64,000 nucleotides of DNA from an uncultured Caldisericota bacterium (GTDB lineage Bacteria > Caldisericota > Caldisericia > UBA6126), in contig CAZBOU010000001.1 of the NCBI GenBank assembly GCA_964493625.1, positions 143,922-207,921 on the forward strand, read 5' to 3'. The position numbers were made by a program, and so were the translations under genes. Positions 39,687-56,611 of this stretch are shown one piece after another (positions within the stretch are counted from its first letter, which is position 1; each line of letters begins with the position of its first letter). Under the pieces are notes generated by a model, which had not been told where the DNA came from, searched no databases, and saw only the letters and a list, made by a program, of their open reading frames with translations.

Positions 39687-39706
39687 TTTTAGGAAAAGAC
39701 GATCTC

Positions 39707-39735: not shown

Positions 39736-39766
39736 TATTAAGAATTTGTTTGTATGGAGGTATTAT

Positions 39767-40285: not shown

Positions 40286-40289
40286 CAAT

Positions 40290-40502: not shown

Positions 40503-40539
40503 AAAACGTTTGTAACAAAAATCAGTAAGGAGAATTATT

Positions 40540-40899
40540 ATGCGAGTTAAAGGTGGATTCACTCGTCGCCGTAGAGTAAAAAAGCTCATGAAGAAAGCGA
40601 AAGGTTACCAAGGATCTGCAAGTCGTAGATTCCGAGCGGCCAAAGAACGAGTTATGCACGCAGAACGAAATGCTTATGTTAGTAGAAGGCTGGTGAAGCG
40701 AGACATTCGAGCTCTCTGGATTCAGCGTATTAATATTGCTGTTAGAATCTCTGACCCAGAGATGAATTATTCAAGATTTATCAACGGGCTTAAAAAATCA
40801 GAGATTGCATTGAATCGTAAAGTTCTTGCTCAAATTGCTGTTGAGCATAAAGAAAACTTCTCTCAGCTTGTAGGAGTATCAAAACAAGCATTAGCATAA
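40540..40899 (+). CDS. rplT: 50S ribosomal protein L20
   Basis: MRVKGGFTRRRRVKKLMKKAKGY..RALWIQRIN; AAGGAG RBS. Confidence 0.96.
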   Translation: MRVKGGFTRRRRVKKLMKKAKGYQGSASRRFRAAKERVMHAERNAYVSRRLVKRDIRALWIQRINIAVRISDPEMNYSRFINGLKKSEIALNRKVLAQIAVEHKENFSQLVGVSKQALA

Positions 40900-42242
40900 T
40901 GAAATATTTTGGAACAGATGGTATTCGGGATCTAGCCAACAAAGGTCTAGGTCCCGAATTCGTTTTACAAGTCGGAAAATCGATTGGGGCCTATCTAAAA
41001 GAATCCTATCCTCAAGAGGATGTTCATGTTTGTATTGGGCGAGATCCACGCCCTAGTGGTGTTCGCATTGAACAGAATCTTGTGGAAGGACTGCAATCGG
41101 TGGGGGTGCATTGCCATATTTTTGGCATTCTCCCAACGCCTGCCGTATCAAGACTCTGTAAAAACAAACACTACCATATGGGTATTGTAATTTCTGCTTC
41201 CCACAACCCTGCCCCATACAATGGTATCAAGTTGTTTCAAAGAAACGGGGAAAAGGCAAGTGAAGAAGCCGAAGAGCGCATTGAAGTCTTGCTTGATTGC
41301 CCTTGGCTCATTCAAGAAACGCCCGGTCTTCCTGGTTCCTATATTGAAGAACCAAGAGCCATTCATGAATATGTCTCTGATATCGTAGCGCAGTATTCTT
41401 TTCTACCGCTCTCTTCAATAAACATTCTTGTGGATTGTGCCAACGGGGCTACTTCCTTTACCACGCCAAAAGTTTTTTCAAAATTGGGGGCTCGCGTCAC
41501 TGCCATTTCTACTCAAACCGATGGAGATTCTATCAACCATCAATGTGGATCTCTTCATCCTGAAGCCATTCAGCAGTATTTGCAGTCCACTCAAACAACC
41601 TTTGATTTTATTTTCTCCCACGATGGCGATGGCGATCGAGTATTGGCATTCACGCCCGATGGCAAAATGGTAAATGGCGATCAAATGTTAACAACGGTTG
41701 CCCTTGCCAGGGAACAACTGCATACTCTATCCAAAAAAACCGTTGTCGGCACCGTGATGACCAATGAAGGAATAATTGAATTTTTAAAAAATAGAAACAT
41801 TGAGTTTTATCGTTCCAATGTCGGAGACAAATATGTCTATCGAGATATGATTCGATTGTCAGCACAAATTGGTGGTGAACAATCGGGACATTTATTATTT
41901 CTTGACAAAAGCCCAACAGGAGATGGCCTTGTATCAGCCCTAGAGTACATCCATGCCATCACAACCTTAAGCAAACCAGTGCAAGATTCAATTCACCACA
42001 TCCCGCTTTATGTGCAAAACTTAACCAACTTGCGGGTGCATGATAAGAACCGAATTTTATCTTCCTCACAGTTTTGTGAAACAATGGAGCAAATTCAAGC
42101 CCAAAATCCTGATGCTAGAATGATTGTCAGGCCTTCCGGTACAGAACCTTTGTTTCGCGTCCTTGTGGAAACTCCTACCCAGGAAAAAACAACACAATTA
42201 ACGCAGCAAATTGTTCGCTTTATCGAAACAATGGAAGACTAG
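40899..42242 (+). CDS. glmM: Phosphoglucosamine mutase
   Basis: MKYFGTDGIRD, active-site ISASHNPAPYNGIK, GDGDR and GGEQSGH motifs. TAATG overlap with rplT. Confidence 0.95.
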   Translation: MKYFGTDGIRDLANKGLGPEFVLQVGKSIGAYLKESYPQEDVHVCIGRDPRPSGVRIEQNLVEGLQSVGVHCHIFGILPTPAVSRLCKNKHYHMGIVISASHNPAPYNGIKLFQRNGEKASEEAEERIEVLLDCPWLIQETPGLPGSYIEEPRAIHEYVSDIVAQYSFLPLSSINILVDCANGATSFTTPKVFSKLGARVTAISTQTDGDSINHQCGSLHPEAIQQYLQSTQTTFDFIFSHDGDGDRVLAFTPDGKMVNGDQMLTTVALAREQLHTLSKKTVVGTVMTNEGIIEFLKNRNIEFYRSNVGDKYVYRDMIRLSAQIGGEQSGHLLFLDKSPTGDGLVSALEYIHAITTLSKPVQDSIHHIPLYVQNLTNLRVHDKNRILSSSQFCETMEQIQAQNPDARMIVRPSGTEPLFRVLVETPTQEKTTQLTQQIVRFIETMED

Positions 42243-42244
42243 CT

Positions 42245-45200
42245 GTGTCTTTTGTTCATCTTCACAATCATTCAGAATACAGTCTTTTGGATGGCCTGAG
42301 CAAAACAAAAGAAATGGCAGAACATGCCCTGGCACTTGGTCAAAAAGCTATTGCTCTGACCGACCACGGGACCATGTTTGGGGCGATCGAGTTTTACAAA
42401 ACCTGCCTAGATGTTGGCATCAAGCCCATTGTAGGTTGTGAAGTTTACGTTGCTCCAGAGAGCCTTCATAAAAAAGATGAAAAGCGCCATGGAACAAATT
42501 TGTTCCATCTGCTGTTGCTAGCAAAAAACAACCAAGGGTATCAGAATCTATGCAATATAGTCTCGCGCTCCTATACAGAAGGGTTTTATTACAAACCTCG
42601 CATTGATTTTGACTTGTTGTCTTCTTTGGGAAACGATTTAATTGTCAGTACGGGGTGTATCCAGGGACAACTTCCGCGATTGTTGCTAGCCGGCCAAACC
42701 ACTGAAGCCGAAGACCTTGCACGGCAGTATAAGGAGAGGTTTGGTTCCGATTTTTACATCGAAATCATGAATCATGGATTGGCAGAAGAAATGAGAGTAA
42801 ACCCTCTTTTGGTCTCCTTGGCAAACAAAGTAGAGATTCCTTTGATTGCTACCCACGATTCTCATTATGTCCACAAAGAAGATGCATATGCTCACGATAT
42901 TCTGTTGTGTATTCAGCAGCTAAAAGATTTTGACGATCCAAAGCGGATGCGCTTTACAGGAGATAGCTTTTACTTGAAAAGCGAAGAGGAAATGAAGCAG
43001 CTTTTTCCGGAACTACCCCAGGCCCTCGAGAATACCTCACAAGTAGCCGAGAAATGCAACCTAGAATTTGATTTTGAAACCAAACACCTTCCCAAATATC
43101 GTTCTCCCGAGCATGGCGTTGCTTCCAAAGAAGAACGGATTCAATATCTTCGCCACTTGTGCGAGGAAAATCTACCACTGCGATATGGAAATACTATTGA
43201 TAAAGACATTCGAGATCGACTGGAATACGAGCTTGGCGTCATCGAATCCATGGATTTTGTGGACTATTTTTTAGTAGTACAAGACTTTATTCGGTACGCA
43301 CGAGAAAACAATATTGCCGTTGGACCCGGAAGAGGCTCTGCTGCAGGAAGTATTGTGAGTTACCTTTTGCGAATAACTGACATTGATCCTCTACGTTACA
43401 ATTTGTATTTTGAAAGGTTTCTAAACCCGCAGCGCTTTTCAATGCCAGATATCGATATTGATTTTGAAGATGCAAGGCGAGAAGAAATCATTGATTATGT
43501 AAAAAGAACGTATGGCGAAGATTGCGTTTCTCAAATAGGAACGTTTGGAAAGTTGGAATCGCGAGCAGCCTTTCGAGATGTAGCTCGGGCTTTTAAAATA
43601 TCCCCTACCGAAATAAACCTGCAATCCAAAAAAATACCTGCTGGCCAGAGTCTAGCATCTGCCTATAAGCATAGCGAATCATTTAAGAAGCTCGTGGACG
43701 AAAACGAAACCTATACAAAAATATACGAAACAGCTTCGCGCTTAGAACACGCAGTCCGCAATTTTTCCACACATGCTTGTGGCATTTTAATTACCGACGA
43801 ACCTCTTTGGAATTATGTTCCACTGGCTATCGACAAAAATAAAAAACGCGTTTCGATGTACGAGAAAAATACGGTTGAAAAGTTGGGCCTGCTGAAAATG
43901 GATTTTTTAGGACTAAAAAATCTAACCATTATTAAGGATTGTTGCGAACTAGTTCAAAAGCAACAAAACAAGGCGATTGATTTAGATGCATTACCCCTCG
44001 ACGATGCGACCACTTACGAGCTGTACAAAAAAGGACAAACCAAGGGTGTATTTCAAGTGGAAAGCCCTGGTATGCAGAAATGGCTCAAGGAATTGAAGCC
44101 AGACTCTATAGAAGATATTATCGCTATGGTGGCTTTGTATAGGCCAGGACCAATGCAAAATATACCAGACTTTATTGAAAACAAACAAAACCAATCTACT
44201 ATCCAGTATCTAGATGCTTGCTTAGAGCCTGTACTTAAAAATACGTACGGTATTTGTATATACCAAGAACAAGTGATGAGCATTGCCCAAGTGATGAGCG
44301 GTTTTTCCATGGCAGATGCTGACAAGCTTCGCAAAGCAATGGGAAAAAAGATCCCAGAGCTTATGGAGAAGCAGCATGAAAAATTTGTGAAGGGCGCTAT
44401 TGAAAAAGGGTTTACGCAAGACCTTGCAGAAACTGTATTTGCCATGCTTGAGAAGTTTGCGGAATATGGCTTTAATAGAGCCCATGCTGCATGCTACGGT
44501 CTGTTATCGTATCAAACCGCCTATCTCAAAGCAAACTATCCAGCAGAATACATGTGCTCTTTAATGAATACATTTCGATCGGACGAAAAGAGAATAGAAA
44601 GCTATATTGATGAATGCCGGGCCATGAATATTCCCATTCTTCCTCCCGATATCAACAAAAGCCACATTTTATTTTCCCTTGAAACCATGCCCTCCTCAAA
44701 AGAAGGCGAAGAGAAACAGGAAACACCAAGCGAGATCGGTATTCGTTTTGGCCTTTCTGCGATCAAAAATGTTGGAGAAGCAGCCTTAGAAAGCGTTCTC
44801 GAAGATCGTACAACCAACGGTCTCTATATAGGCGTGAAAGACTTTAAAACACGCAACAAAACAAACAAGGTGACCAAAAGAACTATTGAATTTCTCATAA
44901 AAGCAGGAGCATTCGATTTTTATCAGAACAATCGAACCGACTTGCTAGATACACTAAACAATGTCCGGGCCGAGGGGCTATCTTTGTTCGACTCTTCCCC
45001 AGAATCCAGTTCAGAGGCTCCCAAAGCTGCACCTACTAGTTCTATTGAGACCAATCTTTTGTTTGAAAAAGAAGCCCTTGGTTTCTATATCACTACCAAT
45101 CCTATGGTCCAGTTTCTAGAAGCTTTTCCATCCTTGGAATTTACGACCCTAGAAGCACTGCAAGGGATACATGCTGAAACAGAAGTGCAGGTGTTTTGCA

Positions 45201-45709
45201 TGATTGATTCAATCCGTAGTCCTCGAAAAAAGACCAAAAACACCGTACGAATGTGTACCCTTTCTGATCTATCCGGGTCTATGGAGCTCCTTGCCTTCGG
45301 GCAAGCTGCAAATGATATTGATGCGGTCATGCAGGAAGAAAATTCAGATGCCATTATGGCTTTTTTGTGCACCGCAAAAGTAGCCTTTCGAAACGATGGA
45401 TTTCAATACCTTATTAAAAAAGTCGATCGCTGCTATACTCTGTCGGATGTACACCGCCAACTTAAAAAACCTTCCCGGTTGTATTTAAATATCAATTTGG
45501 ATATCATTTCAAAAACCAAATTATCGGAGATCACTCATCTCCTATCGAAACATACAGGACCGTCCGATGTCATCCTCCATATTCATTTCAGAGGCTATCG
45601 CATTGAAACTCACCCTTCGATGGACTACCATGTAACCCGTAGCATGGAGTTAACTACAGAATTACAGCACTTATTATCACCAGAAAATGTGTGGTGGAGG
45701 CAATGTTAA
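42245..45709 (+). CDS. dnaE: DNA polymerase III alpha subunit
   Basis: PHP domain FVHLHNHSEYSLLDG, GPGRGSAAGS, MPDIDIDF, FNRAHAACY. 1,154 aa with a GTG start. Confidence 0.96.
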   Translation: MSFVHLHNHSEYSLLDGLSKTKEMAEHALALGQKAIALTDHGTMFGAIEFYKTCLDVGIKPIVGCEVYVAPESLHKKDEKRHGTNLFHLLLLAKNNQGYQNLCNIVSRSYTEGFYYKPRIDFDLLSSLGNDLIVSTGCIQGQLPRLLLAGQTTEAEDLARQYKERFGSDFYIEIMNHGLAEEMRVNPLLVSLANKVEIPLIATHDSHYVHKEDAYAHDILLCIQQLKDFDDPKRMRFTGDSFYLKSEEEMKQLFPELPQALENTSQVAEKCNLEFDFETKHLPKYRSPEHGVASKEERIQYLRHLCEENLPLRYGNTIDKDIRDRLEYELGVIESMDFVDYFLVVQDFIRYARENNIAVGPGRGSAAGSIVSYLLRITDIDPLRYNLYFERFLNPQRFSMPDIDIDFEDARREEIIDYVKRTYGEDCVSQIGTFGKLESRAAFRDVARAFKISPTEINLQSKKIPAGQSLASAYKHSESFKKLVDENETYTKIYETASRLEHAVRNFSTHACGILITDEPLWNYVPLAIDKNKKRVSMYEKNTVEKLGLLKMDFLGLKNLTIIKDCCELVQKQQNKAIDLDALPLDDATTYELYKKGQTKGVFQVESPGMQKWLKELKPDSIEDIIAMVALYRPGPMQNIPDFIENKQNQSTIQYLDACLEPVLKNTYGICIYQEQVMSIAQVMSGFSMADADKLRKAMGKKIPELMEKQHEKFVKGAIEKGFTQDLAETVFAMLEKFAEYGFNRAHAACYGLLSYQTAYLKANYPAEYMCSLMNTFRSDEKRIESYIDECRAMNIPILPPDINKSHILFSLETMPSSKEGEEKQETPSEIGIRFGLSAIKNVGEAALESVLEDRTTNGLYIGVKDFKTRNKTNKVTKRTIEFLIKAGAFDFYQNNRTDLLDTLNNVRAEGLSLFDSSPESSSEAPKAAPTSSIETNLLFEKEALGFYITTNPMVQFLEAFPSLEFTTLEALQGIHAETEVQVFCMIDSIRSPRKKTKNTVRMCTLSDLSGSMELLAFGQAANDIDAVMQEENSDAIMAFLCTAKVAFRNDGFQYLIKKVDRCYTLSDVHRQLKKPSRLYLNINLDIISKTKLSEITHLLSKHTGPSDVILHIHFRGYRIETHPSMDYHVTRSMELTTELQHLLSPENVWWRQC

Positions 45710-47478
45710 AGTTTTTTGGATCGGTACGATTTCAAGTCGTTATCTTCACCATTTTGGTGGTTGTATCCGGAAATGTAGTGTTAAACTATTTTCTGACTCA
45801 AAATGCAAAAGAAATGCTGATTGTAGAAAAACAAGAAAAAATTGAAAATGTTGGCCATTACCTTGTGAAAGAATACAACCGATATTTTGTAGGAGAACAA
45901 AGCCAAGTCTATCAGTTGGCCAAAGAACAGCATGCAAGATATACAGGGACAGAGCCAAAAACAGTCGAAGATATTTACCACAACTTATTGAAACAAAAAA
46001 TTCGCCCTACCCTGCATGGCATCATCGAAACTTCTTCTTCTCTTTTCAGTGAAGAAGGGGGCGCAGGATTTTATATCCGAAGCCAAAATCGCGTGTATGG
46101 ATTTCTCGAAAAAACCGAATTGTACTCCTATGATAAAATTATTGCCACCGTTCCTATCAGTAACGATGGATCGTTTGTTTGGGTGGAAGAATCGACACGG
46201 AATCTTGATCAAAAAGTAGCTTTGTTGCAGCACAGAACGAATTCAATTACCATTGTTGTGATTGGAATCATCTTGCTGTTTGCCTTTCTTTTTAGTTTTT
46301 CCTTTGCGGGACGCATTAAAAGAATTCTTCGGGGTTTAAAAATACTCGAACAAGATTTGCATGTCCCTTTGCCATCTATGAATGGAGAATTAGGAATTCT
46401 CTCCGAGGGCATCAACCAATTGGCGCAAAGCCTGATTTTATCTAGAACGCGATCTGATTTAATCCTAAACAATGCATCCACGGCCATGATATCTCTAGAT
46501 CAGAACCACAATATCCTTTTCTACAACAAAGCAGCTCTTGAGCTTTTGCAGATCCAAGAAAAGCAGTTACACATCCAAACAATCTACTCGCTTCTGGGAC
46601 CCGTTTTAGAAAATGCTGTCACTAGAGCATTTGAGAATAAGCATACCTTTTCTTTTGATAATTTTCCTGTCCGCCTTCCTTCCATGCAAAAGTATTTTCA
46701 TATTGTAGTAGCGTGTCATTTTGACCCTGAAAATAAGAGAACTGTTTTGATTACACTGGACGATGTCACTGAAAATGTGAAGCTCATACGAGAGGCTGAA
46801 AAGAACGAATCTCTACGCATGCTTGGAATGTTTACCACAGGCATAGCCCATGAAATACGAAATCCCTTAACATCTGTGAAAGGATTTGTGCAGCTACTCG
46901 GTAAAAAAGTATCCAATGAGCCTGGCAATCAAAGAATGATTCAATTGATCGGTAGAGAAATTGACCGATTGGAAGACTTGCTCAAAGATTTAATCACCTA
47001 TGCCCGTCCCTCGAAAACGAACAACGAATGGATTCCTTTGCCAGATCTTGTAGGAATTATTGAAAATTTACTTAAAGAGAGAGTTCAACAACGGAAAGTC
47101 GAGTTTCAAATTGAAGGAATGGAATCCATCGAATTGTTTGCCGACCAAAGAAAAGTACATCAAGTTTTGTTTAATCTTGTACTCAATGCGATTCAAGCAG
47201 TTCGCATTGGAGAGGGTGTTATCAAGTTGTACGGCGTTGCTGAGCCGGATGCATTTTGGATTTGTGTACAAGACAATGGATATGGAATTCGAGAAGAAGA
47301 TGTAGGAAAAATTTTCACACCCTTCTTTACAACCAAAGATAAGGGTACCGGATTGGGGCTGGCTATTTCCCGTAGAATGATGGAAGATATGGAGGGTGTC
47401 ATTGACTTTACAAGTGATCCAGACCAGCATGTTACCGTCTTCCGCATTGGATTTACGAACTGGAGAAAAGCGCACTAG
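45691..47478 (+). CDS. Sensor histidine kinase (TM-periplasmic-TM, HAMP-like, PAS, HisKA, HATPase)
   Basis: H-box HEIRNPLTSVKGF, N-box LNAIQA, G1 VQDNGYGI, G2 GTGLGLAISR, and two predicted TM segments. The start is uncertain (GTG 45691 or ATG 45703). Overlaps the dnaE end. Confidence 0.88.
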   Translation: MVEAMLKFFGSVRFQVVIFTILVVVSGNVVLNYFLTQNAKEMLIVEKQEKIENVGHYLVKEYNRYFVGEQSQVYQLAKEQHARYTGTEPKTVEDIYHNLLKQKIRPTLHGIIETSSSLFSEEGGAGFYIRSQNRVYGFLEKTELYSYDKIIATVPISNDGSFVWVEESTRNLDQKVALLQHRTNSITIVVIGIILLFAFLFSFSFAGRIKRILRGLKILEQDLHVPLPSMNGELGILSEGINQLAQSLILSRTRSDLILNNASTAMISLDQNHNILFYNKAALELLQIQEKQLHIQTIYSLLGPVLENAVTRAFENKHTFSFDNFPVRLPSMQKYFHIVVACHFDPENKRTVLITLDDVTENVKLIREAEKNESLRMLGMFTTGIAHEIRNPLTSVKGFVQLLGKKVSNEPGNQRMIQLIGREIDRLEDLLKDLITYARPSKTNNEWIPLPDLVGIIENLLKERVQQRKVEFQIEGMESIELFADQRKVHQVLFNLVLNAIQAVRIGEGVIKLYGVAEPDAFWICVQDNGYGIREEDVGKIFTPFFTTKDKGTGLGLAISRRMMEDMEGVIDFTSDPDQHVTVFRIGFTNWRKAH

Positions 47479-47559
47479 TTCAATGAATGCATAGTAGCGT
47501 TCCGGGTTCTTGATGAACGACACTATTGCATTTTATGACTTTCCCTTTACATTTGTAAC

Positions 47560-48858
47560 ATGATAAAATACAAAGTTTTAATTGCCGACGATGAAGAAGG
47601 TGTACGAGATCTCTGTACTGCCATTGCAGAAGATGAGGGTTACGAAGTCATCACTGCAGTTGACGGGATTGATGCCTTGCAGAAAATCCGAGAAGAAATT
47701 CCCGATGTTATCCTATTGGACGTTCGAATGCCCGATATGGATGGCATGGAAGTTTTTCAAAAGGTAAAGGAAGACTATATCGATGCACCAGTTGTATTCG
47801 TAACAGCGTTTGGCTCTTCCGATCTGGCCATTGAAGCCATGAAACAGGGCGCGTATGATTATATTACGAAACCATTTGATATAGATGAAATCCGCATTGT
47901 CTTAAAAAAAGCTCTCTATGTAAAACAATTAACAAAAGAGATTACCAACCTACGATCGAATCATAATACAGCCTACCCAAGCACAGTTGACTTAGTCGGT
48001 TCCTCGCATGTTATGCAGGATGTTTTTAAAAGCATCGGCATGGTAGCTAAAAACACAGCCTCTGTTTTGATCGAAGGAGAAGCAGGTACAGAAACCGATC
48101 AAGTAGCACATACCCTGCATGAAAAATCTGCGATGTCCGAAGAACCCTTTTGCGAGATATCTTGTTACGAAGACGTCGATGCCTTCCAAGAGGAATGTTC
48201 CAACTTTCCTACAGGTTCTACCGCAACGGTATATATAAAAAATATCCAACTTCTTTCAAATAAAGGGCAGGAAATTCTATTTCAAAAGATTTCGAAGGAC
48301 ACCTCCTCCCGCTTTGTATCTTCTAGCACTGTTGATATTTCCGACAAAGTAACGCAAGGGCACTTTCATGAACAATTGTTTTTTAAACTGTCTACGGTAC
48401 GCATTCATCTACCCCCTTTGCGGGAACGAATAGAAGATATCGAAGAAGTTGGACTTCATTTAATAGAACCTTTGAATGCACAATACAAAAAAAATGTGAA
48501 GGGTTTTTCTTCCGATGCAATCGACATTTTCAAAGCATATTCGTGGCCTGGTAATGTGGAAGAATTTAAAAATGTATTGACGCATAGCATTATTTCCACA
48601 AAAAGTAATTTCATTACTAAAGAGAATTTACCCGCATTTCTTTTTCATAAGTCCACTGAACAAAAAGTAAATCCAGATGATATATATCTCGGTTTAACCC
48701 TCTCAGAGGCAACAAAAAAATTTGAAGCGGAGTATATAAAGCGAATTTTGCAGATGCAGGGAGGGAATAAAACCAAAACAGCTGAAATTTTGGGCATATC
48801 TCGCCGCTCCTTGTTCAACAAACTTAGATCCTATGAGCTTCTATCACCCTCAAAATAA
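47560..48858 (+). CDS. NtrC-family response regulator with degenerate AAA+ core and Fis-type HTH
   Basis: Intact receiver (ADDEEG..ILLDVRMPDMDG..KP) and HTH (GGNKTKTAEILGISRRSLFNKL). The central domain keeps LPPLRERIEDI and WPGNVEEF, but Walker A reads GEAGTETD, the GAFTGA segment is absent, and Walker B reads VYIKNI. Confidence 0.88.
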   Translation: MIKYKVLIADDEEGVRDLCTAIAEDEGYEVITAVDGIDALQKIREEIPDVILLDVRMPDMDGMEVFQKVKEDYIDAPVVFVTAFGSSDLAIEAMKQGAYDYITKPFDIDEIRIVLKKALYVKQLTKEITNLRSNHNTAYPSTVDLVGSSHVMQDVFKSIGMVAKNTASVLIEGEAGTETDQVAHTLHEKSAMSEEPFCEISCYEDVDAFQEECSNFPTGSTATVYIKNIQLLSNKGQEILFQKISKDTSSRFVSSSTVDISDKVTQGHFHEQLFFKLSTVRIHLPPLRERIEDIEEVGLHLIEPLNAQYKKNVKGFSSDAIDIFKAYSWPGNVEEFKNVLTHSIISTKSNFITKENLPAFLFHKSTEQKVNPDDIYLGLTLSEATKKFEAEYIKRILQMQGGNKTKTAEILGISRRSLFNKLRSYELLSPSK

Positions 48859-48942
48859 AAAAGGCTCTGTTGTGAACCTTTTAATTCCGAAAGATTATTT
48901 TCTATAAAAAACAGAAAAAACCTAAAAAAAAGGTGTTTTTTC

Positions 48943-48971
48943 TTGATTTTTTAAAAAACTTTTGTTTAAAT
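48943..48971 (+). promoter_or_regulatory. Candidate sigma-70-type promoter for the third giant gene
   Basis: TTGATT, 17 nt, TTAAAT within a very AT-rich 222-nt intergenic region. Many alternative hexamers are possible. Confidence 0.25.
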
Positions 48972-49080
48972 ACTTTTATAGAAAAGTAGTATTTTGTAGT
49001 ACCTAGTGTAATGTTAATTTTACAGTAAGTTTAATTTTTAGGCCCTTTAACCTACAATTAACTTTAAAGGGGGGTAGGTT

Positions 49081-52000
49081 ATGAAAAAGACAATTCGATT
49101 TGTAGCTAGTTTAATTGCAGTAACCTTAGTGGTTTCTGTATTTGCCAGTGTTGAAATGACCCGGGCAGATGCTCAGAACATACAGGTTACACCGTACCCT
49201 AAAACGGCAGGAACACAAGCATCCTACCAAGTAAAGTTTAATGTAAATTCGGCACTTCAAGCGGGAAAAGATTCAATTTCAATCATTTTCCCCAAAGAAA
49301 CGAATTTGGATTCGACGATTTCTTCTGGAAACATTTGTGTTAATCCAAAAGAGTTAATAGGTGCTGATTTTGAACTTGATTACCGCACGGGTACTGTTCG
49401 TTTAATGAATCCTCTTCGCAAAGGGGATCGTGTTGTTGTGGACTATCGTTATCAACCTGGTCCAGACTACACACAGCTACCGCGAAACGTTAAATTTTAT
49501 GATTTAACCTATGGTGCTGGCAATGTCCGTTCCGGCAACGGCCGACTGGATGCTGGTGAATGGATCTATGAAGACCGTGATAACGACAGTAAGATTTCTG
49601 TGGGTGACCGCAGATTATGCATTGTCGCTGTTGGTGGTGTTACCTACCGCCAAGGATCCTTGGTTCAAGTCGGTGACAACGACTTTGGAGCCGGAGCTGA
49701 TCCAACAAGACCTTTAACGTCTTTCTCTTCCACCAACCTAACGTTTGTTGACAACAACAACGATGGTATCTTCAACGAAAACGATTGGCTAGTGGATGAT
49801 CGCAATCAAAACAACTATTTAGACCGCAACGATGTTTTGATTGCTGGTATTTTCGATTACCAGGCAGGGTCCATTGTAGAAGGGACCAATTTGGATATAG
49901 CCAATGTTGTCACTCGTTTGGGCAATGATCCTATTGTTGGTAACGATTATGTGTTTGCAGATACCGTATCTGCCAATGGAACCTATGATTTTGGTGAATA
50001 CATTTATGAGAAAACCACCCTGCTTGCTCTTAACAAAGAAGTTCAGGTTGGCGATACTCGCTGGAGCTGGGTTGTTGCTGGAACCAATTTGTATCCACCC
50101 CAAACCATTGTTGTAGCAGGCGACACCGATATTGGCACGCCTGTCAATATCTTCCCATGGTCTGCCACATCCTATTCCGAAGGGTATACAAACAACGTTA
50201 CCCCTCCACTACCCGCCCCACCACTATTCAATGGATGGCGCATTTATCGATTGGCAAACAATACGACACCAGCTGTTTCAGCTGGGAATTATCGAAAAAC
50301 CGATGTGCGATATGGGCAGTATGCACCTACTCTTCTTGTTACCCCCATCGACGCTGACATCGGAAAACCATTGTTTCCTTTTGCCACCAATGAAAAGTTC
50401 CACGACACCGATGGAGATACCAATTATTGGGAGACCGATCCTGTTTACCGCGATCTAGACAACAACAGTACGGTAAGTGAGGGCGATGTTCGTCTCACCG
50501 ATTTTACTGTATGGGATGGTTCGCATCGCATCCACTACACAGCTGGTTCCATTGTACGCAATTGTGAAAAAGATGTGGGCCTTGCATTGTCTACGTTCCA
50601 ATCCGCTGCAAATCGATATCGCCATATGGAAAATGGAATTCCTAATAACATTTTTGAACCTGGCGAAATGATTGTTCGAGATGCAGATGCAACCAATTCT
50701 ATTACAGCTGGCGATACTCGTTTTGATTATTATGGCGTTATGTCTGCCAATGTTTCGATCATGAATGACCAATATTCTGACTATGGAAAAACCCTTACCA
50801 AGGGTTGGACCGACATTAATGGCGAAGTATTGGTGAATTATGCTGACGGCGGGGAGCAAATCCTGAAATTGTCTCATTACCCCGTTATTGCACCTGTCAT
50901 TCCCATAGACAACGATGTCAATTATCGAGTAATGCCCATACAATTAGCAAGCAATCCTACCAATTTCAAGAACACTGGAAAATGGTACTATATTGTAACA
51001 GCCCTCAGTGATACCTTGAATGAAGAATCTCCTCCATGGCCAGAACGCATGGTCGATTTTACTTCTGGGAATATGAATGCTGTCCATTTAAACTGGTCTC
51101 CTGTACCCAATGCCAGCAAGTATAAGGTATATCGAACAAAAGATGCTGGAACGTATAGTGAAGATTCTTTAGTCGCCGTTGTCAAAGCTCCCTATACATC
51201 GTATATCGATGTTGGATGCGATGCATTAACCGGAGCTCCACGGCCAGAGTATCGATCTTCCTTTACAAAAATTATGATCGAAAGACCTACCAATGGCGGT
51301 TCTTATACCACCCGCCAAATGAATGAATACGAGTTGTCGGATTACAAGATTGATTGCAAAACCGGACTCATTACATTCCGTAAATCCTTAAAACAACTCG
51401 ATACTGTTGTGGCCGACTATGATGTTGCTCAGAGCATTACCAATGAAAAAATTATCATTGATACCATCTCTGGTCGCGGTCAACTTCGCCATGGCGAAAT
51501 CATTGACCCCGATTTATTCGGCGAAGAAGAATACAAACTTGAACTTCGCAAGGTAAGTGCATCCAATCCAAACTACCCCACAGTTCTTGTTCGCGGTGTA
51601 GATTATCAATTTATGGATTCTAACAATGATATTGTCGAAGGCTTGAAGAATGGTTCCATTGTCTTCTATACCCAAATAAGCGATGGAGATTCTGTATATG
51701 CCGACTATTATTACAGAGACAAAGTGCGCGGTGATTTAGTGGCCGTTGCAAATGGCAACGAAACACAACTAAGAACTCACCAAAGCAATATTGTTCCCGG
51801 AACATACACAGTGTACAAAGGAAAAACCTTATCCTCTGCTCCTGTCATCAATGTTATGAACAGCGAAAGAGGACCCTTGGTTACCTTTACCACACCCGTT
51901 AATGTCATTCCTGATCCCGCCTACAGAGTGAACCCAACCCCCGAATCCAAGCGAGATATTACGATAGTCTTTTCACTCCAAACCGGCATTCGCAACCCAA

Positions 52001-53901
52001 GCAAAGCTGGAAACTATCAGCTATATGTCAAAACATCTCAAGAACAAACTGAAATTCTTTCAACACCTTATGTTATTGAAGCCGGCAGCGAAGCCCAGCA
52101 GCTGATCAAGCTAACACAAGACCAATCCATATCTGCTGGACAAACCATTGCCTTAACATGTGCCGTACAAGACAATTTAGGAAATATGATACCGAATACT
52201 TCCATTAAATATACTATTGTCAGTTCTCCGAATAGCGAAGGTATCTTAAACAAAGAGAATTTTGTTACCGATTCTTCGGGTAACGCCGTAGCCATGTATA
52301 CAACTTCCAAAACTCCTGGCCTGAATACAATAAGGGCCCATATCGTTGGAACTACACAAAGCGTTACTTTCAAGATTAATGGACTCTCTTCTCAACCCAT
52401 CACGCGCATTGGCATATCTCCTAAAGATGCGCGCGTGCTACCAAACGGCACACAATTGTTTACAGCCATTGGATATAACTCCGCTGGTGAAAATGTACCC
52501 AATATTAAGTTCAACTGGTCTGTAAGCCCACCTAGTATAGGAACTATTACCAGCGATGGAAACTTCACTGCAGGTTCTTCCAATGCAACCGGAACAATTA
52601 TAGCAGAGGCTTATGGCGTGCGCGCCACCGCCAATGTAACCATTGCGTCGGGTCAAACAAAGGTTTCCAACATTGTATTGAATCCATCCCAAGCGGAAGT
52701 ATCGGTTGGAAAGACTGTTCAGTTTACCGCCAAAGCTTACGATAAAGACGGAAACGAAGTATCTGTACCCTTTACGTGGTCTATTAGCAATGATGAATTT
52801 GCTTCTATTTCGCAAAGTGGTCTCTTGACTGCAAAAAATCCTGGTACTGTTTTTGTTATTGCAACAGAACCAGGCGGCATGAATCAATATGCTACTGTTA
52901 CCATCACCAAGGGCGAATCCGGAATTAGTTACATAGAGATTCAACCTAGCACCTACCAAATGAATGTTGGCCAATCCGTACAGTTTACAGTTAGTGCCTA
53001 CGACCAAGCTGGCGATCGTTTCACCCCCACCAATGTTACATGGGAAGTTACCAGTGGCACTATTGGCGTCATTACAAATACAGGTGTTTTCACCGCTACC
53101 ACAGTGGGAATTGGTAGAGTAACAGCAAAAGTAGGTACGTTATCATCGAGTGCCGAAGTTACTGTCCACTCCAGCCAAGAAGAAGACAAAGTAGGACCCG
53201 TCATTACGCTTATTAGTCCAAAAGATGGCGATACCATCTCTGACAATACTGTTGTTGTACGCGGAACCGCCGTGGATCCTTCCGGCGTAAAACAAGTACT
53301 GGTCAACAATGTTCCTGCTAATTTGAATGCTGACGGTATCTTTACCTCTCAGCCTGTTGCTATTACCAGCGGAAGCAATGTGATTTCTATCATCGCTACA
53401 GACAACCGAAACAATGTCTCTATGCTTAGCATTACAGTCAAAAAGACGGTACCTGTTATCATTAAGCTTCAAATTGGAAACAAAAATGCCGTCATCATGA
53501 AGAACAATATGCCCCAGTTTGTTACCATTGATCTTGCTCCTTTCACAACCGAAGGCAGAACGATGGTACCGCTGCGCTTTATTACAGAATCCTTTGGTGC
53601 TCTTGTGGACTGGAAACCAGATGTACCTGCTACCGGTGAAGGACAGATTACCATTACACTGGACAAACACAATGGCAGCAGAGTGCAATTGATTATGCAT
53701 ACTGGATCTACCTTCATGAAGAAAATTACCACCAAAGACGGCAGCTCCACAGAAGAAGCTATCAATTACTCTCCTGCTCCCTATATCGTAAAACCGCAAG
53801 GCCGAACAGTTGTTCCTCTTCGATTTATCTCTGAACAATTTGGAGCCACTGTCGATTGGGATGCTACCACACAGGAAATCACCATTACCTATTATCCCTA
53901 A
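49081..53901 (+). CDS. Giant secreted surface protein paralog (1,606 aa) with split module, Ca2+-loop repeats, FN3-like, 4x Big_2, Ig and 2x CuAO-N-like domains
   Basis: RBS AAGGGGGGTAGG. Signal peptide MKKTIRFVASLIAVTLVVSVFASVEMTRA. Module signature TGIRNPSKAGNYQLYVKTSQE. Big_2-like units (~52380-53170). C-terminal GRTMVPLRFITESFGALVDW and GRTVVPLRFISEQFGATVDW. Confidence 0.92.
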   Translation: MKKTIRFVASLIAVTLVVSVFASVEMTRADAQNIQVTPYPKTAGTQASYQVKFNVNSALQAGKDSISIIFPKETNLDSTISSGNICVNPKELIGADFELDYRTGTVRLMNPLRKGDRVVVDYRYQPGPDYTQLPRNVKFYDLTYGAGNVRSGNGRLDAGEWIYEDRDNDSKISVGDRRLCIVAVGGVTYRQGSLVQVGDNDFGAGADPTRPLTSFSSTNLTFVDNNNDGIFNENDWLVDDRNQNNYLDRNDVLIAGIFDYQAGSIVEGTNLDIANVVTRLGNDPIVGNDYVFADTVSANGTYDFGEYIYEKTTLLALNKEVQVGDTRWSWVVAGTNLYPPQTIVVAGDTDIGTPVNIFPWSATSYSEGYTNNVTPPLPAPPLFNGWRIYRLANNTTPAVSAGNYRKTDVRYGQYAPTLLVTPIDADIGKPLFPFATNEKFHDTDGDTNYWETDPVYRDLDNNSTVSEGDVRLTDFTVWDGSHRIHYTAGSIVRNCEKDVGLALSTFQSAANRYRHMENGIPNNIFEPGEMIVRDADATNSITAGDTRFDYYGVMSANVSIMNDQYSDYGKTLTKGWTDINGEVLVNYADGGEQILKLSHYPVIAPVIPIDNDVNYRVMPIQLASNPTNFKNTGKWYYIVTALSDTLNEESPPWPERMVDFTSGNMNAVHLNWSPVPNASKYKVYRTKDAGTYSEDSLVAVVKAPYTSYIDVGCDALTGAPRPEYRSSFTKIMIERPTNGGSYTTRQMNEYELSDYKIDCKTGLITFRKSLKQLDTVVADYDVAQSITNEKIIIDTISGRGQLRHGEIIDPDLFGEEEYKLELRKVSASNPNYPTVLVRGVDYQFMDSNNDIVEGLKNGSIVFYTQISDGDSVYADYYYRDKVRGDLVAVANGNETQLRTHQSNIVPGTYTVYKGKTLSSAPVINVMNSERGPLVTFTTPVNVIPDPAYRVNPTPESKRDITIVFSLQTGIRNPSKAGNYQLYVKTSQEQTEILSTPYVIEAGSEAQQLIKLTQDQSISAGQTIALTCAVQDNLGNMIPNTSIKYTIVSSPNSEGILNKENFVTDSSGNAVAMYTTSKTPGLNTIRAHIVGTTQSVTFKINGLSSQPITRIGISPKDARVLPNGTQLFTAIGYNSAGENVPNIKFNWSVSPPSIGTITSDGNFTAGSSNATGTIIAEAYGVRATANVTIASGQTKVSNIVLNPSQAEVSVGKTVQFTAKAYDKDGNEVSVPFTWSISNDEFASISQSGLLTAKNPGTVFVIATEPGGMNQYATVTITKGESGISYIEIQPSTYQMNVGQSVQFTVSAYDQAGDRFTPTNVTWEVTSGTIGVITNTGVFTATTVGIGRVTAKVGTLSSSAEVTVHSSQEEDKVGPVITLISPKDGDTISDNTVVVRGTAVDPSGVKQVLVNNVPANLNADGIFTSQPVAITSGSNVISIIATDNRNNVSMLSITVKKTVPVIIKLQIGNKNAVIMKNNMPQFVTIDLAPFTTEGRTMVPLRFITESFGALVDWKPDVPATGEGQITITLDKHNGSRVQLIMHTGSTFMKKITTKDGSSTEEAINYSPAPYIVKPQGRTVVPLRFISEQFGATVDWDATTQEITITYYP

Positions 53902-53957
53902 GTTTATTCGTATAGCATATACCGCTTAAACAGCTAAATTCCAACAACACTCGCAAA

Positions 53958-53987
53958 GCCGGGGCCCTCAAAAGCCCCGGTTTTTTT
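53958..53987 (+). terminator. Rho-independent terminator after the third giant gene
   Basis: GCCGGGGC-cctcaaaa-GCCCCGG hairpin followed by TTTTTTT. Confidence 0.85.
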
Positions 53988-54030
53988 ATTCTTTTTTTTG
54001 GGTATATTTATACTGAACGTCATATAGAAA

Positions 54031-55080
54031 GTGAGAACAATAAAAACTATGGGATATATATTAGCCTTACTAGGATTGGCCCTCATTATACTTCTACACG
54101 AATATGGACACTACCTTGCTGCTAAAAAAAGCGGGATTGTTGTGGAGCGTTTTGGCATTGGTATGGGACCCACCATTAAAATTGGTAAGTTTGCAGCTCA
54201 TTGGTATCGAGATGGTACTGAGTTTTGTTTGTGCTGGATCCCCATCGGAGGATTTTGTCAACTAAAAGGGGAAGAAGATGATGAAAAAGGAGAAGGCACA
54301 TACAATTCCGCCTCTCCCCTCGCGAAGTTCTGGGTTTCGTTCAGTGGCCCTTTTGCCAATTTTCTCACTGCTTTCGCAATTCTTTTGATTGTTTTTTCCT
54401 TTTTGGGCAATCCCTTGCAGATGCAAGTCCAGGAAACTATAGACGAGTATCCTGCTATGGAAGCAGGCATCCAACCAGGGGATATCATTATTGGTGTCAA
54501 TGACACTCAAAGCGATGCATGGTCGGACTTACAACCTATCATTTCTGAAAGTGCAGGAAAGCCTGTCACATTAACCATTCAACGAGACAATGATACCTTT
54601 ACCATTAACATTGTTCCCAAAGACGACGATGGGGTAGGCATGTTGGGAGTCATTTTGGCTCCATCTGACCAACCTGTTGGATTTTTACAATCCGTCAAAA
54701 TGTCTCTTACCATGATGAAAGACTTCTTTGTCGAACTGGTACGCTTTGTTGGAAAAGCCATTACAGGCGACCTTGGAGGCGTACAAGTAACAGGTCCTGT
54801 GGGGATTATAAAGATGGCAGGAGAATCTGCCAATGCTTCTGCCGTGGCCTTTTTATTTTTTGTTGCCTTCTTAAGCTTGAATTTGGGGATTTTTAATTTG
54901 TTCCCTATTCCCCCTCTAGATGGTGGCAAAATTGTATTTGCAGCCTATGAAGGCATCACCAAGAGAAGCGTCAATAAAAAAGTTGAAATGACCGTTAGCA
55001 CGATTGGATTTATGCTTTTAATTGGGGTGCTTCTCATTGTTACCTACAAAGATATTGTCGGCTTGTTCTTTTCCGTATAA
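54031..55080 (+). CDS. rseP: RIP metalloprotease RseP (site-2 protease)
   Basis: HEYGHYLAAK (HExxH), a PDZ segment (AGIQPGDIIIGVND), and NLFPIPPLDGG. The start is either GTG 54031 or ATG 54049. Confidence 0.9.
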   Translation: MRTIKTMGYILALLGLALIILLHEYGHYLAAKKSGIVVERFGIGMGPTIKIGKFAAHWYRDGTEFCLCWIPIGGFCQLKGEEDDEKGEGTYNSASPLAKFWVSFSGPFANFLTAFAILLIVFSFLGNPLQMQVQETIDEYPAMEAGIQPGDIIIGVNDTQSDAWSDLQPIISESAGKPVTLTIQRDNDTFTINIVPKDDDGVGMLGVILAPSDQPVGFLQSVKMSLTMMKDFFVELVRFVGKAITGDLGGVQVTGPVGIIKMAGESANASAVAFLFFVAFLSLNLGIFNLFPIPPLDGGKIVFAAYEGITKRSVNKKVEMTVSTIGFMLLIGVLLIVTYKDIVGLFFSV

Positions 55081-55135
55081 CTAGTTCAAAAGCCACGACT
55101 TCTTCTACACCAGGAGGCGACATCTGAAAAAACCA

Positions 55136-55384
55136 ATGCATATTGATGGAAAACGTTTGGTTGAGATATTATCCTCTGGTGCATCAAAGCTCGTTGGACA
55201 CCAACAGTATCTAGACTCCATTAACTACTATCCTGTTCCAGATGCTGATACAGGGACCAATATGCACAAAACTATGATGCCGCTTTCCATCAATCAAGGT
55301 TCTTTCTACCATTCTTCATGGACACACAGTATTTACTCACTCCAAGGCAATCACGCAACCGATTGTTTTTCAATCGGAGTTTGA
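55136..55384 (+). pseudogene. Remnant of a DAK2 (DhaL/FakA-N-like) domain, truncated and frameshifted
   Basis: The first ~45 aa parallel the N-terminus of the neighbouring 625-aa protein (YPVPDADTGTNM vs FPVPDADTGTNM), then similarity is lost. Roughly 170 aa of the DAK2 core have no counterpart. Similarity resumes in another frame at ~55377 (FDFAGATHQYCTEVVIAGE vs FDFEDTTYRFCTEALISGD). Confidence 0.7.
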
Positions 55385-55439
55385 TTTTGCAGGGGCAACC
55401 CACCAGTATTGTACAGAAGTTGTTATTGCCGGAGAAAAA

Positions 55440-56489
55440 TTGCCCCTGGAAGCCCTTAAAAAACAACTCCCCAAAATCGGGGATTCGATTGTCGTGATCG
55501 GCAATTCAAAGAAAGCAAAAATTCATATTCATACAGACCAGCCAGGAGAAGTTTTTTCCATTGTTTCACAAGAGGGAATCATCATCCAAGAGAAAATTGA
55601 TGATATGTACCAGCAAATGCTTGATATGAAGACAGCTGCGCAAAGAAAGATTTGCATTGTTGTCGATTCCACCTTTGATATGGATCCAACCCTCATGGAA
55701 CGATACAATATTCATATTCTTCCTCTTCATGTCAAAATGAATGATATGGATCATCTAGATCCGTTTTCCATCGATACAGACACCTTTTACGCATGGATGA
55801 AAACATCTCCATATCATCCCACAACCTCTCAGGTTTCGCTAGCGGATGCTGAACGAATGTTCAAATGGACATCCAAATTGTATGACCATACCATTGCCCT
55901 TACCATAGCAAAGGTAGATAGCGGGACATACCAAAGCGTTAGCAAGGCAGCAGAATTGGTTTCTCCTGACACCATTACCGTTATTGATACCAAAACAGGG
56001 TCCGGTGCTTCCAGCTTGCTAGCTCTTGAAGCCGCCAAAAGCATTGAACAAGGGAAATCTCACGAAGAAATCATCAAGGATTTGTACGAAAAAAGACCAG
56101 CAGCGGAATTACTGATTGCTATCAAAACCCTACAACATTTGTTTCGAGGGGGTCGTTTATCCAAATCTCTTTTCTATATCGGAAAGGCTTTGGGATTACA
56201 ACCCATAATTACGGCTGATTCAGAAGGAAAACTGATTCCCTTTGCCAAAGTATTGGGCGGACGAAAAAAAGTCCTAAAAAGGCTGCTTTCTGAAGTTTTG
56301 AAAAAAACATCAACGTATGCCAGACCTAAATTTATCATTTCTCATGCCAATGAACCCCAAGAGGCCCAATGGATGAAAAAGGTCCTATCGGAAAAAACGT
56401 CTTCTCCTTTTATTTCTGTTACCACGATGGGGCCAGTACTAGGTTCTCATGGAGGTCCAGGCACCGTTGTTGTGTCTTGGCTCCCATAG
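55440..56489 (+). CDS. DegV-family fatty-acid-binding protein (C-terminal part of a decayed DAK2::DegV paralog)
   Basis: GDSIVVIGNSKKAKIHIHTDQPGEVF followed by a DegV core (ICIVVDSTFDM..HILPLHV..PTTSQVS..RGGRLSK). The open frame extends upstream to ~55278, so the real start is uncertain. Confidence 0.8.
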   Translation: MPLEALKKQLPKIGDSIVVIGNSKKAKIHIHTDQPGEVFSIVSQEGIIIQEKIDDMYQQMLDMKTAAQRKICIVVDSTFDMDPTLMERYNIHILPLHVKMNDMDHLDPFSIDTDTFYAWMKTSPYHPTTSQVSLADAERMFKWTSKLYDHTIALTIAKVDSGTYQSVSKAAELVSPDTITVIDTKTGSGASSLLALEAAKSIEQGKSHEEIIKDLYEKRPAAELLIAIKTLQHLFRGGRLSKSLFYIGKALGLQPIITADSEGKLIPFAKVLGGRKKVLKRLLSEVLKKTSTYARPKFIISHANEPQEAQWMKKVLSEKTSSPFISVTTMGPVLGSHGGPGTVVVSWLP

Positions 56490-56611
56490 TTTTTCCTGTA
56501 GTAGCTCCCATTGCTCGTAGTAGCAAAGCCTTCCCCTATTGCACCCCCCATTCCAATTGTTATAATCTAGAGATAGATCCTTGGCCAAATCTCTTGCATT
56601 AGGAGTGTACT

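Follow-up and report, generated by a model that had tools for sequence, protein, structure and literature searches.

We analysed a 64,000-nt stretch of the genome of an uncultured Caldisericota bacterium (contig CAZBOU010000001.1; hereafter the window), in which a gene on the forward strand (47560-48858) encodes a 432-amino-acid (aa) response regulator of the NtrC family. This regulator has kept the receiver and the DNA-binding domain of its relatives and has apparently lost the ATP-driven motor and the sigma-54-facing parts of its central AAA+ domain, in an order of bacteria from which the sigma-54 gene rpoN is absent. We consider it likely that it is a functional response regulator derived from an NtrC/AtoC-type bacterial enhancer-binding protein (bEBP), motor-dead, which after the loss of rpoN would work by phosphorylation-controlled DNA binding at sigma-70-type promoters. 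An earlier, sequence-only reading had proposed that the protein acts as a conventional DNA-binding regulator. The open reading frame (ORF) and the sequence features described there were recovered at the same positions, and the absence of motor elements, of both loops, of rpoN and of a -24/-12 promoter supports such a mode of action as the probable one.

An NtrC-family regulator with intact signalling ends

The protein displays all three parts of the NtrC-family architecture, a receiver (REC), an AAA+ domain and a Fis-type helix-turn-helix (HTH), with conserved receiver residues. In Pfam searches, its receiver (residues 6-113; 47575-47898) matched PF00072 (Response_reg) at 106 bits; the acidic pocket D10/D11, the phospho-acceptor D54 and K104 are invariant across 83 homologues, and T82 is invariant across 27 and nearly so across the 83. 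The Fis-type HTH (HTH_8, PF02954, 45 bits; residues 387-425; 48718-48834) contains the stretch GNKTKTAEILGISRRSLFNK, which the motif table shows to be near-identical to its counterpart in intact long orthologues. Both domains had been described as intact by the sequence-only reading, and these data bear this out. Between them lie a degenerate AAA+ alpha/beta core (residues 146-287; 47995-48420), covered over the full model by PF14532 (Sigma54_activ_2) at 86 bits, and the AAA+ lid (residues 288-369; 48421-48666; PF25601, AAA_lid_14, 67 bits). The stricter profile PF00158 (Sigma54_activat) aligned via model positions 1-59 and its tail, with nothing between, and recovered no functional GAFTGA or Walker motif that could have been misaligned by eye.

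The top NCBIfam models for the regulator were AtoC, NtrX and NtrC, every score being far under cut-off (296.6 bits vs 714 for AtoC, NF008468). Each of these models aligned in two pieces, which indicates a missing middle. With the AtoS model (NF008469) likewise at 322.2 bits vs 646 for the neighbouring kinase, AtoS/AtoC equivalog status is not reached by the NCBIfam cut-offs, and no ato genes occur near the locus. When compared by phmmer with PDB sequences, NtrX, LuxO and NtrC1 aligned to residues 5 to about 203 and 248 to about 425, leaving 25-29 subject residues between the two blocks with no counterpart in the regulator.

Loss of the motor residues and of both sigma-54-facing loops

Motif losses were judged by alignment with 26 homologues and with 34 orthologues cut from genomes, in which the short forms measure 430-438 aa and the intact relatives 466-485 aa. 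Walker A, GESGTGKE in intact relatives, reads GEAGTETD (residues 173-180; 48076-48099), with the P-loop Gly replaced by Glu and the Lys by Thr. A 17-residue deletion at the junction VD/AF (residues 206-209; 48175-48186) takes away the L1/GAFTGA loop, which intact relatives carry as LLESELFGHEKGAFTDA, and is common to all 12 short orthologues. L1 is inserted in helix 3, and its GAFTGA motif contacts sigma-54 region I. Walker B reads ATVYIKNIQ vs GTIFLDEIG in intact relatives, the catalytic Asp-Glu having become Lys-Asn in the remnant VYIKNI (residues 224-229; 48229-48246); within the short clade this acidic-pair position holds KN, QN, KD or RN. A second deletion, of 12 residues, at the junction KD/TS (residues 246-249; 48295-48306) removes the pre-sensor-I loop (L2, RVGG), present in intact relatives as RTYERVGGKEVL. 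According to PMC2745333, from which the loop's identity and role are taken, it serves to position L1 and is linked to the ATP site; 99% of bEBPs have the first Gly of RVGG.

The remaining catalytic positions are altered as well. In the region of sensor I (RFVSSSTVD) and the arginine fingers (FHEQLFFKLS; 48310-48393), AATN of the intact relatives has become SSST, with loss of the Asn, and FREDLYYRL has become FHEQLFFKL, with both Arg positions replaced. Two downstream landmarks had been reported to survive; LPPLRERIEDI of the lid and WPGNVEEF are indeed present, but within the latter the sensor II Arg is replaced by Glu (WPGNVEEFKN, 48544-48573; WPGNVRELEN in intact relatives). Both deletions and the Walker B and sensor II losses recur in 12/12 full-length orthologues from 12 genomes, and because of this recurrence they cannot be a sequencing artefact or a chance event. 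The lysine-less Walker A, the deleted GAFTGA stretch and the altered Walker B had already been pointed out by eye and stand in the alignments, to which we add the L2 deletion and the losses in sensor I, sensor II and the arginine fingers. None of the bEBP hallmarks (GAFTGA, RVGG, Walker A and B, arginine fingers, sensor I Asn, sensor II Arg) was found in the regulator. All catalytic AAA+ elements and both sigma-54-facing loops are gone, and precisely the two bEBP-specific insertions have been excised, in frame. Taken with the absence of rpoN, these losses suggest that the protein, as had been supposed, probably neither hydrolyses ATP nor remodels sigma-54.

Absence of sigma-54 from the order

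In a survey of 93 species genomes of the phylum, rpoN was absent from the window's genome and from all 15 genomes of its order, which comprises families f1 and f2 and four genera. The Sigma54_DBD profile (PF04552) scored above cut-off in 0/15 genomes of the order vs 74/78 elsewhere in the phylum, and PF04963 (Sigma54_CBD) likewise in 0/15. From the completeness values, and with independence assumed, the chance that gaps in the metagenome-assembled genomes (MAGs) hide rpoN in all 15 is about 1e-15. The MAG containing the window measures 2.35 Mb in 111 contigs and is 89.6% complete; tblastn with five Caldisericota RpoN proteins detected no relic in it. In four relatives from three families rpoN is located directly upstream of gap-pgk; in the window's genome gap-pgk lies on a 25-kb contig and two divergently oriented genes occupy the expected rpoN site. 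Elsewhere in the phylum, PF00158 gives 1-3 full-length matches per genome at about 225-260 bits. Within the order, a weak partial match of this regulator, at 39-68 bits, is all that it gives, with one exception in genome G081.

Two candidate remnants of a sigma-54 system were rejected. The order's only sub-threshold PF04552 match (22 bits, genome G079) is a generic HTH with a Lon C-terminal domain: a 140-aa ORF on G079:C15 (L065, 1971-2393) in which an N-terminal HTH (MKHITIKDIAKELNLAVSTISRAF) is joined to the C-terminal catalytic segment of Lon protease. The G081 exception (G081:C323; L062, 265-1368) is a LevR-like fragment with GESGVGKT, GSFTGA and FLDEVH intact, located on a 1.6-kb contig of an rpoN-negative MAG (340 contigs, 2% contamination), and is a probable binning contaminant.

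One could suppose that the regulator is still linked to sigma-54, with rpoN missed in MAG gaps or too divergent, or with contact made via another surface. The MAGs of the order are 75-97% complete, and the G081 contig does carry an intact GSFTGA in a bEBP fragment. This fragment is most simply a LevR-like contaminant, however, and both sigma-54 domains as well as the tblastn search gave nothing. The assembly covers the gap-pgk site, where there is no rpoN; the loops with GAFTGA and RVGG, which define sigma-54 engagement, are absent, and the 10 orthologous spacers described below contain no -24/-12 site. We regard a surviving sigma-54 link as barely credible.

Stepwise degeneration under purifying selection

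The named homologues of the regulator come from Caldisericia MAGs. Of the 15 genomes of the order, 14 have the short form, each in one copy, and the best match in each other family is one intact regulator. In a maximum-likelihood tree, 12 short proteins formed one clade (100/100) nested in the Caldisericia regulators at 98/97, on a long stem of 0.76 substitutions per site and weakly sister to family f6 (85/73). Since the two deletions and the Walker B and sensor II losses are common to the four genera, they date to the order's ancestor, and rpoN disappeared along this same branch. Three sister genera still have the Walker A lysine (GENGTGKE, GESGTGKE, GEHGTGKE), and 8/8 species of the window's genus have lost it. 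The degeneration is stepwise, the loops, Walker B and sensor II having gone first and the lysine later. Because they keep this lysine, the three sister genera could bind ATP without hydrolysing it, and the label "dead" applies fully to the window's genus.

The ratio of nonsynonymous to synonymous substitution rates (dN/dS) was calculated by the Nei-Gojobori method on unsaturated pairs. For the whole gene it was 0.05-0.07 in such pairs and 0.05-0.13 overall. By domain, it amounted to 0.02-0.04 for the receiver, 0.06-0.12 in unsaturated or close pairs for the dead AAA+ core, 0.02-0.09 for the lid and mostly 0.02-0.09 for the HTH region (residues 370-432), where one pair with a dS of only 0.02 gave 0.30. 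Purifying selection acts on every domain of the regulator. An orphaned bEBP drifting towards a pseudogene after the loss of rpoN would also have shed all its catalytic motifs, and the progressive degeneration with the lysine lost only in the youngest genus, the long stem branch and the dN of the core, the highest of the folded domains and exceeded only by a short linker, would suit such a decaying relic. It is contradicted, however, by the selection analysis and by an ORF that stays intact and single-copy across four genera. Conservation extends to the catalytic residues of the receiver and to the HTH, the fold is predicted confidently, and the deletions are in frame and map exactly onto the two loops. 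The constraint on the AAA+ core excludes a pseudogene or a mere spacer, and we regard ongoing decay as highly improbable.

An AlphaFold2 model built with the 83-sequence alignment reached a mean predicted local distance difference test (pLDDT) score of 86.6, and the AAA+ core consists in it of five strands with flanking helices at a pLDDT of about 90. Only the tail of the linker between receiver and AAA+ domain (residues 132-143) and the linker between lid and HTH were uncertain. Foldseek ranked NtrX (5M7N/O/P), NtrC1 (1NY5), NtrC4, LuxO and VpsR first, NtrX being the best, and the isolated AAA+ domains of NtrC1, ZraR, PspF and FleQ gave template-normalised TM-scores (TMt) of 0.75-0.80. According to the model, the AAA+ fold would persist without the two loops.

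A stripped core that is still under purifying selection could have taken on a new role in sensing a ligand, either a nucleotide or a second messenger like cyclic di-GMP (c-di-GMP), instead of serving as a passive scaffold. Its structural neighbours VpsR and FleQ use this region for c-di-GMP control, and the P-loop is intact in three sister genera. The presence of Glu and Asp and the lack of Lys in the P-loop of the window's genus speak against phosphate binding. The Arg-Asn pair that follows Walker A in FleQ would correspond by eye to His-Thr in the regulator. We find such a sensor function improbable.

Promoter and operator candidates in the spacer

The regulator gene is followed on the same strand by the gene for a 1,606-aa secreted or surface protein (49081-53901), the presumed target, which had been placed 222 nt downstream; the spacer (48859-49080) has this length. 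We scored the -24/-12 consensus TGGCAC-N5-TTGC out of 12. The best score was 7/12 in this spacer and 8/12 over the whole set of 10, made up of this spacer and nine orthologous ones; no site had both GG and GC, and no site of at least 10/12 occurred in window 38001-58000. The earlier remark that no good -24/-12 element precedes 49081 is therefore upheld by the scan. As a control, the scan found canonical sites beside intact bEBP genes in rpoN-positive relatives: in G017 (C. exile-like), G007 and G009, a second bEBP gene of about 600 aa is followed by TGGCACGATTTTTGCA (12/12), TGGCACAAATTTTGCA and TGGCATAAATTTTGCA. These sites (L070 2989-3004 in G017, L069 3021-3036 in G007, L071 about 3113-3128 in G009) precede an E1alpha/E1beta/E2 2-oxoacid/acetoin dehydrogenase-like operon, and this bEBP type beside an AcoR/aco-like operon is missing altogether from the window's order.

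When the spacers were aligned, only one part proved to be conserved in all four genera, a promoter-like block TTTCTTGATTTTTTAAAAAACTTTTGTTTAAAT on the forward strand (48939-48971). It can be read as a putative -35 TTGATT (48943-48948), a 17-nt spacer and an extended -10 TGT-TTAAAT (48963-48971). Across genera the block takes the form TTTCTTG(A/C)(T/A)TTTT-N-TTG(T/C)TTAAAT, with a -35/-10 spacing of 16-17 nt and an extended -10 TGn-TTAAAT, and a search of the 2.35-Mb genome for exactly this pattern gave a single match (1 vs 0 in the control). From the absence of sigma-54 and the conservation of this sigma-70-like block, we infer that the regulator would act on RNA polymerase (RNAP) of the sigma-70 type.

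In the window's genus a leader of about 110 nt is nearly invariant though synonymous sites are saturated. A dyad TGTAA-N8-TTACA on the forward strand (49007-49024), preceded by (T/A)GTGTAAT, has arms that are invariant in six species of the genus and a spacer that varies; it might tentatively be taken for an operator. An alternative -10-like TACAAT (49053-49058, forward strand), possible from the alignments, reads TACAGT or TATAGT in congeners, so that TAnAnT is kept, and has a poor -35. Rfam gave nothing above noise in the leader, and no covariation was detected in six congeners.

Two further repeats were noticed. An A5-7/T5-7 inverted repeat occurs in every genus (48914-48942 here; L044-L047 for the orthologous spacers). 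Its right arm, TTTTTC, directly adjoins the TTGATT, and its arms are separated by 3 to about 15 nt, e.g. GAAAATTGATAATTTTC in G070; it may be an UP element, an operator or a weak terminator. At 49049-49080, a perfect 7-bp repeat AACCTAC...GTAGGTT brackets the Shine-Dalgarno sequence AAAGGGGGG immediately ahead of the giant gene's ATG. Within the genus this repeat is conserved except for one G-U change and a single break, and it could modulate translation initiation.

The partner kinase and the giant gene

A PAS histidine kinase had been reported alongside the regulator (45691-47478, forward strand; 595 aa), and its domains and motif boxes are intact. It has two predicted transmembrane segments with an extracytoplasmic domain, followed by the Pfam domains PAS, HisKA and HATPase_c, an H box HEIRNP at residue 387 and N, G1 and G2 boxes; its best NCBIfam model is AtoS. 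We presume it to be the partner of the regulator, the adjacency of the two being kept in all four genera of the order. The kinase gene, with its GTG start at 45691, and dnaE, with its stop at 45709, share 19 nt (45691-45709). The gene order dnaE-kinase-regulator is conserved in the order, and also in f3 with a pfk insert, an unusual coupling of two-component and replicative polymerase genes.

Pfam assigns to the 1,606-aa protein Big_1/Big_2 immunoglobulin-like domains, Glucodextran_B and two Cu_amine_oxidN1 domains, in addition to a signal peptide. The loci of the order comprise infC-side genes, an rplT-like gene, a phosphoglucomutase-family gene, dnaE, the kinase, the regulator and the giant gene, and a full-length orthologue of the giant protein, at 49% identity, is encoded directly 3' of the regulator in all four genera. 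The rpoN-positive families differ in their arrangement. In f6 the intact regulator is an orphan after accD-accA, directly upstream of a full-length giant homologue (1,939/1,962 aa), and in f3 the order is dnaE-pfk-kinase-regulator followed by a 2,674-aa giant with related repeats. The gene after the intact regulator encodes an M20 peptidase in f4 and an EamA transporter in f5. The regulator-giant pair in the different context of f6 is the best evidence, short of proof, and suggests a functional link. The regulator would bind within 48859-49080 and control the 1,606-aa gene.

The sigma-54 regulon of the sister families

In the f6 genomes G066 and G067 the intact orthologue of the regulator is the only bEBP and therefore must serve every sigma-54 promoter there. 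Perfect, intergenic and correctly oriented TGGCA(C/T)-N5-TTGCA sites precede the genes for four paralogous large signal-peptide proteins, in four orthologous pairs (near position 1500-1590 of L072-L075 in G067 and of L084-L087 in G066), and a fifth conserved site lies ahead of rapZ (L078, L079). The five sites apparently represent the whole regulon of a single bEBP. Sigma-54 promoters before secreted-protein genes fit the role of controller of the cell exterior that has been published for this factor (PMC3162934). The window's genome contains, beyond the window, a multigene family of secreted proteins of 2,200-3,010 aa with 28-38% identity to the sigma-54-driven f6 proteins, on contigs C2, C6, C8 and C9 (e.g. 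C2:116943, C2:107988, C2:9785, C2:185867).

Upstream of 6 of the 8 f6 sigma-54 promoters, at a distance of 100-150 nt, we found ATGTGTA, a count reached by 2 of 100 shuffles. This 7-mer is similar to the (T/A)GTGTAAT flanking the dyad of the window's genus, and a 13-mer is common to one congener and an upstream region of f6. Enumeration of dyads as enhancer sites in the eight f6 sequences gave nothing above shuffles, and TGTA-N10-TACA occurred in 1/8. Beside the intact orthologues of f3-f6, the 18-kb loci contained no -24/-12 site of at least 10/12 with GG and GC; ahead of the f6 regulator, the best candidates had the wrong spacing or scored only 8/12. Genome-wide -24/-12 counts were discarded as an indicator of rpoN, giving no separation of rpoN-positive and rpoN-negative genomes. 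They are uninformative because most matches fall in coding sequence, the intergenic and oriented ones being informative.

It is to be noted that in both genomes one f6 sigma-54 promoter directly follows a small ORF (<100 aa) with a Fis-type HTH at its end (...TALGVTRKTLYAMIERYGL...; L074, about 1180-1400; L086, same position). Family f3 has in addition a separate PAS-AAA+-HTH_8 regulator of 424-442 aa with no GAFTGA and with LYLANID at Walker B (L057 6510-7835 in G007; L058-L061). At 23-26% identity these proteins were ruled out as orthologues and represent a second, independent atypical lineage of enhancer-binding proteins in the phylum.

The f6 data raise the alternative of a sigma-54-independent regulator for which the giant gene is no target, and which would autoregulate the dnaE-kinase-regulator genes or control distant ones such as those for the secreted proteins of 2,200-3,000 aa. 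The perfect f6 sites stand before the four secreted-protein paralogues and not before the adjacent giant gene, homologues of these paralogues exist in the window's genome, and in f4 and f5 the intact orthologue neighbours unrelated genes. The adjacency of regulator and giant gene in f1, f2 and f6, with a repeat-related giant in f3, despite differing neighbourhoods, speaks against this alternative, as does a promoter block conserved across genera and unique in the genome. We regard it as rather unlikely in its exclusive form; control of the adjacent gene and control of distant genes are compatible and not mutually exclusive.

A model for the exit from sigma-54 dependence

The reading that we favour, a motor-dead but functional response regulator at sigma-70-type promoters, would involve the following steps. 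In the common ancestor of the order rpoN would have been lost, and in the same lineage L1/GAFTGA, L2, the Walker B pair and the sensor II Arg, the Walker A lysine being lost as well in the window's genus. The adjacent PAS kinase would phosphorylate Asp54 of the receiver, and phosphorylation would alter the oligomeric state that receiver, linker helix and motor-dead AAA+ scaffold maintain together. The conserved Fis-type HTH would bind DNA, and transcription would be modulated at ordinary sigma-70-type promoters without ATP hydrolysis, as by VpsR or NtrX. The most likely direct target would be the 1,606-aa gene, via the block at 48939-48971 and/or the dyad at 49007-49024, by activation or by repression.

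Several observations weigh against this reading. Since rpoN and the loops were each lost only once, on one branch, their association has n = 1, and every genome of the order is a MAG, with the completeness given above. Adjacency and conservation are the only grounds for DNA binding, the operator and the target gene; adjacency is weak evidence because synteny in the order extends over the whole neighbourhood, and f6 is the sole semi-independent support. The -10 TTAAAT is poor when compared to the E. coli consensus, and the block is absent from a generic promoter-scan listing because TTAAAT has no A at position 2. The dyad is genus-specific and not present in the other three genera, and its possible link to the f6 7-mer is marginal, post hoc and weak. 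Finally, no -24/-12 site precedes the giant gene adjoining the intact regulator in f6 and f3, and the giant gene may therefore never have been a sigma-54 target.

A more complete scenario of rewiring can be drawn. The ancestor's only response-regulator bEBP would have driven sigma-54 promoters of large secreted or surface proteins, a task that the intact orthologue of f6 apparently performs to this day; upon the loss of rpoN the regulator would have been kept by excision of exactly its two sigma-54-engaging loops, changing from a motor to a phosphorylation-gated scaffold, and the target promoter would have become sigma-70-type, maybe in place. For such an in-place conversion, an extended -10 may have taken its TG from the TTGC of a former -12 element (two genera have TTGCTTAAAT). 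As a joint proposition we hold this scenario to be possible but doubtful. If it is true, the same double deletion seen in unrelated metagenomic regulators (see below) would represent a general and repeatable exit from sigma-54 dependence. One tree holds intact regulators with rpoN, three loop-less, Walker-B-dead genera with a P-loop, and one genus with the P-loop destroyed. These graded states, all under purifying selection, form a natural series on the non-motor roles of AAA+ domains (oligomerisation, RNAP contact, signal gating), which also bears on the dispensable parts of the AAA+ domain and on the rewiring of regulons after the loss of a sigma factor. Public annotation labels such proteins "sigma-54-dependent transcriptional regulator" in sigma-54-free genomes.

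Comparison with known systems

Enhancer-binding protein (EBP) homology with the GAFTGA motif absent or altered defines the atypical EBPs, a class that includes VpsR, NtrX, the NtrC proteins of Rhodobacter capsulatus and Caulobacter, TyrR, HupR, HsfA and PhhR (PMC6158489; bioRxiv 10.1101/2023.06.06.543975) and to which the regulator belongs by this definition. It has been suggested that, in evolution, atypical EBPs link activation via sigma-54 to activation via sigma-70 (PMC6158489).

Vibrio cholerae VpsR (PDB 7V2B) resembles the regulator in its REC, AAA+-like and HTH domains, in having no GAFTGA and in its non-catalytic Walker B, and is a structural neighbour of the model (E 4e-21) with an identity of only about 20% in the structural alignment. 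VpsR, in which Walker B DE is changed to ND, works with sigma-70 RNAP, binding just upstream of the -35, and does not need ATP (PMC6158489; bioRxiv 10.1101/2023.06.06.543975). It controls genes for the cell exterior, those of the biofilm matrix, which we count as a likeness. It differs in that the length of the loop region is kept (an aligned stretch of 229 residues vs 207 in the regulator) and in being c-di-GMP-driven in an rpoN-positive host.

Brucella abortus NtrX (5M7N/5M7O/5M7P), of the NtrY/NtrX system, is the best match both in sequence (3.9e-55) and in fold (6.6e-34); it is an NtrC-family protein without canonical GAFTGA, is paired with a PAS-containing kinase and is a repressor at its own promoter (PMC6158489). 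In contrast to the regulator, its motif is shortened by only 3 residues, with 71 residues between the aligned blocks vs 46, and it was crystallised with ATP and ADP, its nucleotide site binding nucleotide. NtrX is found in alphaproteobacteria, alongside rpoN and other bEBPs. In R. capsulatus and Caulobacter NtrC, a deletion in L1 removes GAFTGA, the promoters are sigma-70-type and phosphorylation of the receiver Asp is required. R. capsulatus NtrC needs ATP binding, however, and Caulobacter NtrC the Walker A Lys and the Walker B Asp, all gone here; the regulator also lacks the pre-sensor-I loop, and both of these genomes retain rpoN. Canonical bEBPs of the NtrC1/AtoC/ZraR type show clear homology and the same domain order, and the intact Caldisericia orthologues are of this type; unlike them, the regulator departs at Walker A and B, GAFTGA, RVGG, the arginine fingers and sensor II, in a genome with no sigma-54.

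A library-wide search with the stripped core brought up four metagenomic proteins (P0136, P0153, P0177, P0205) with L1 and pre-sensor-I deletions at the same places and a degenerate Walker B in 3/4, but with the Walker A Lys mostly kept. Cluster look-up and a scan of genome contigs found no close relatives of these four proteins. Their identity to the regulator is 28-32%, vs 37-41% for the intact Caldisericia orthologues; being less similar than the latter, they probably represent independent losses. To our knowledge, the genomes of the characterised atypical EBPs compared here still carry sigma-54, and most of these proteins keep a usable nucleotide site. We conclude that atypical EBPs as such are known, and that the regulator is a more extreme form, which differs from the characterised ones by the deletion of both loops together with the loss, in the window's genus, of every catalytic residue, in a sigma-54-free order and as part of a graded series on one tree.

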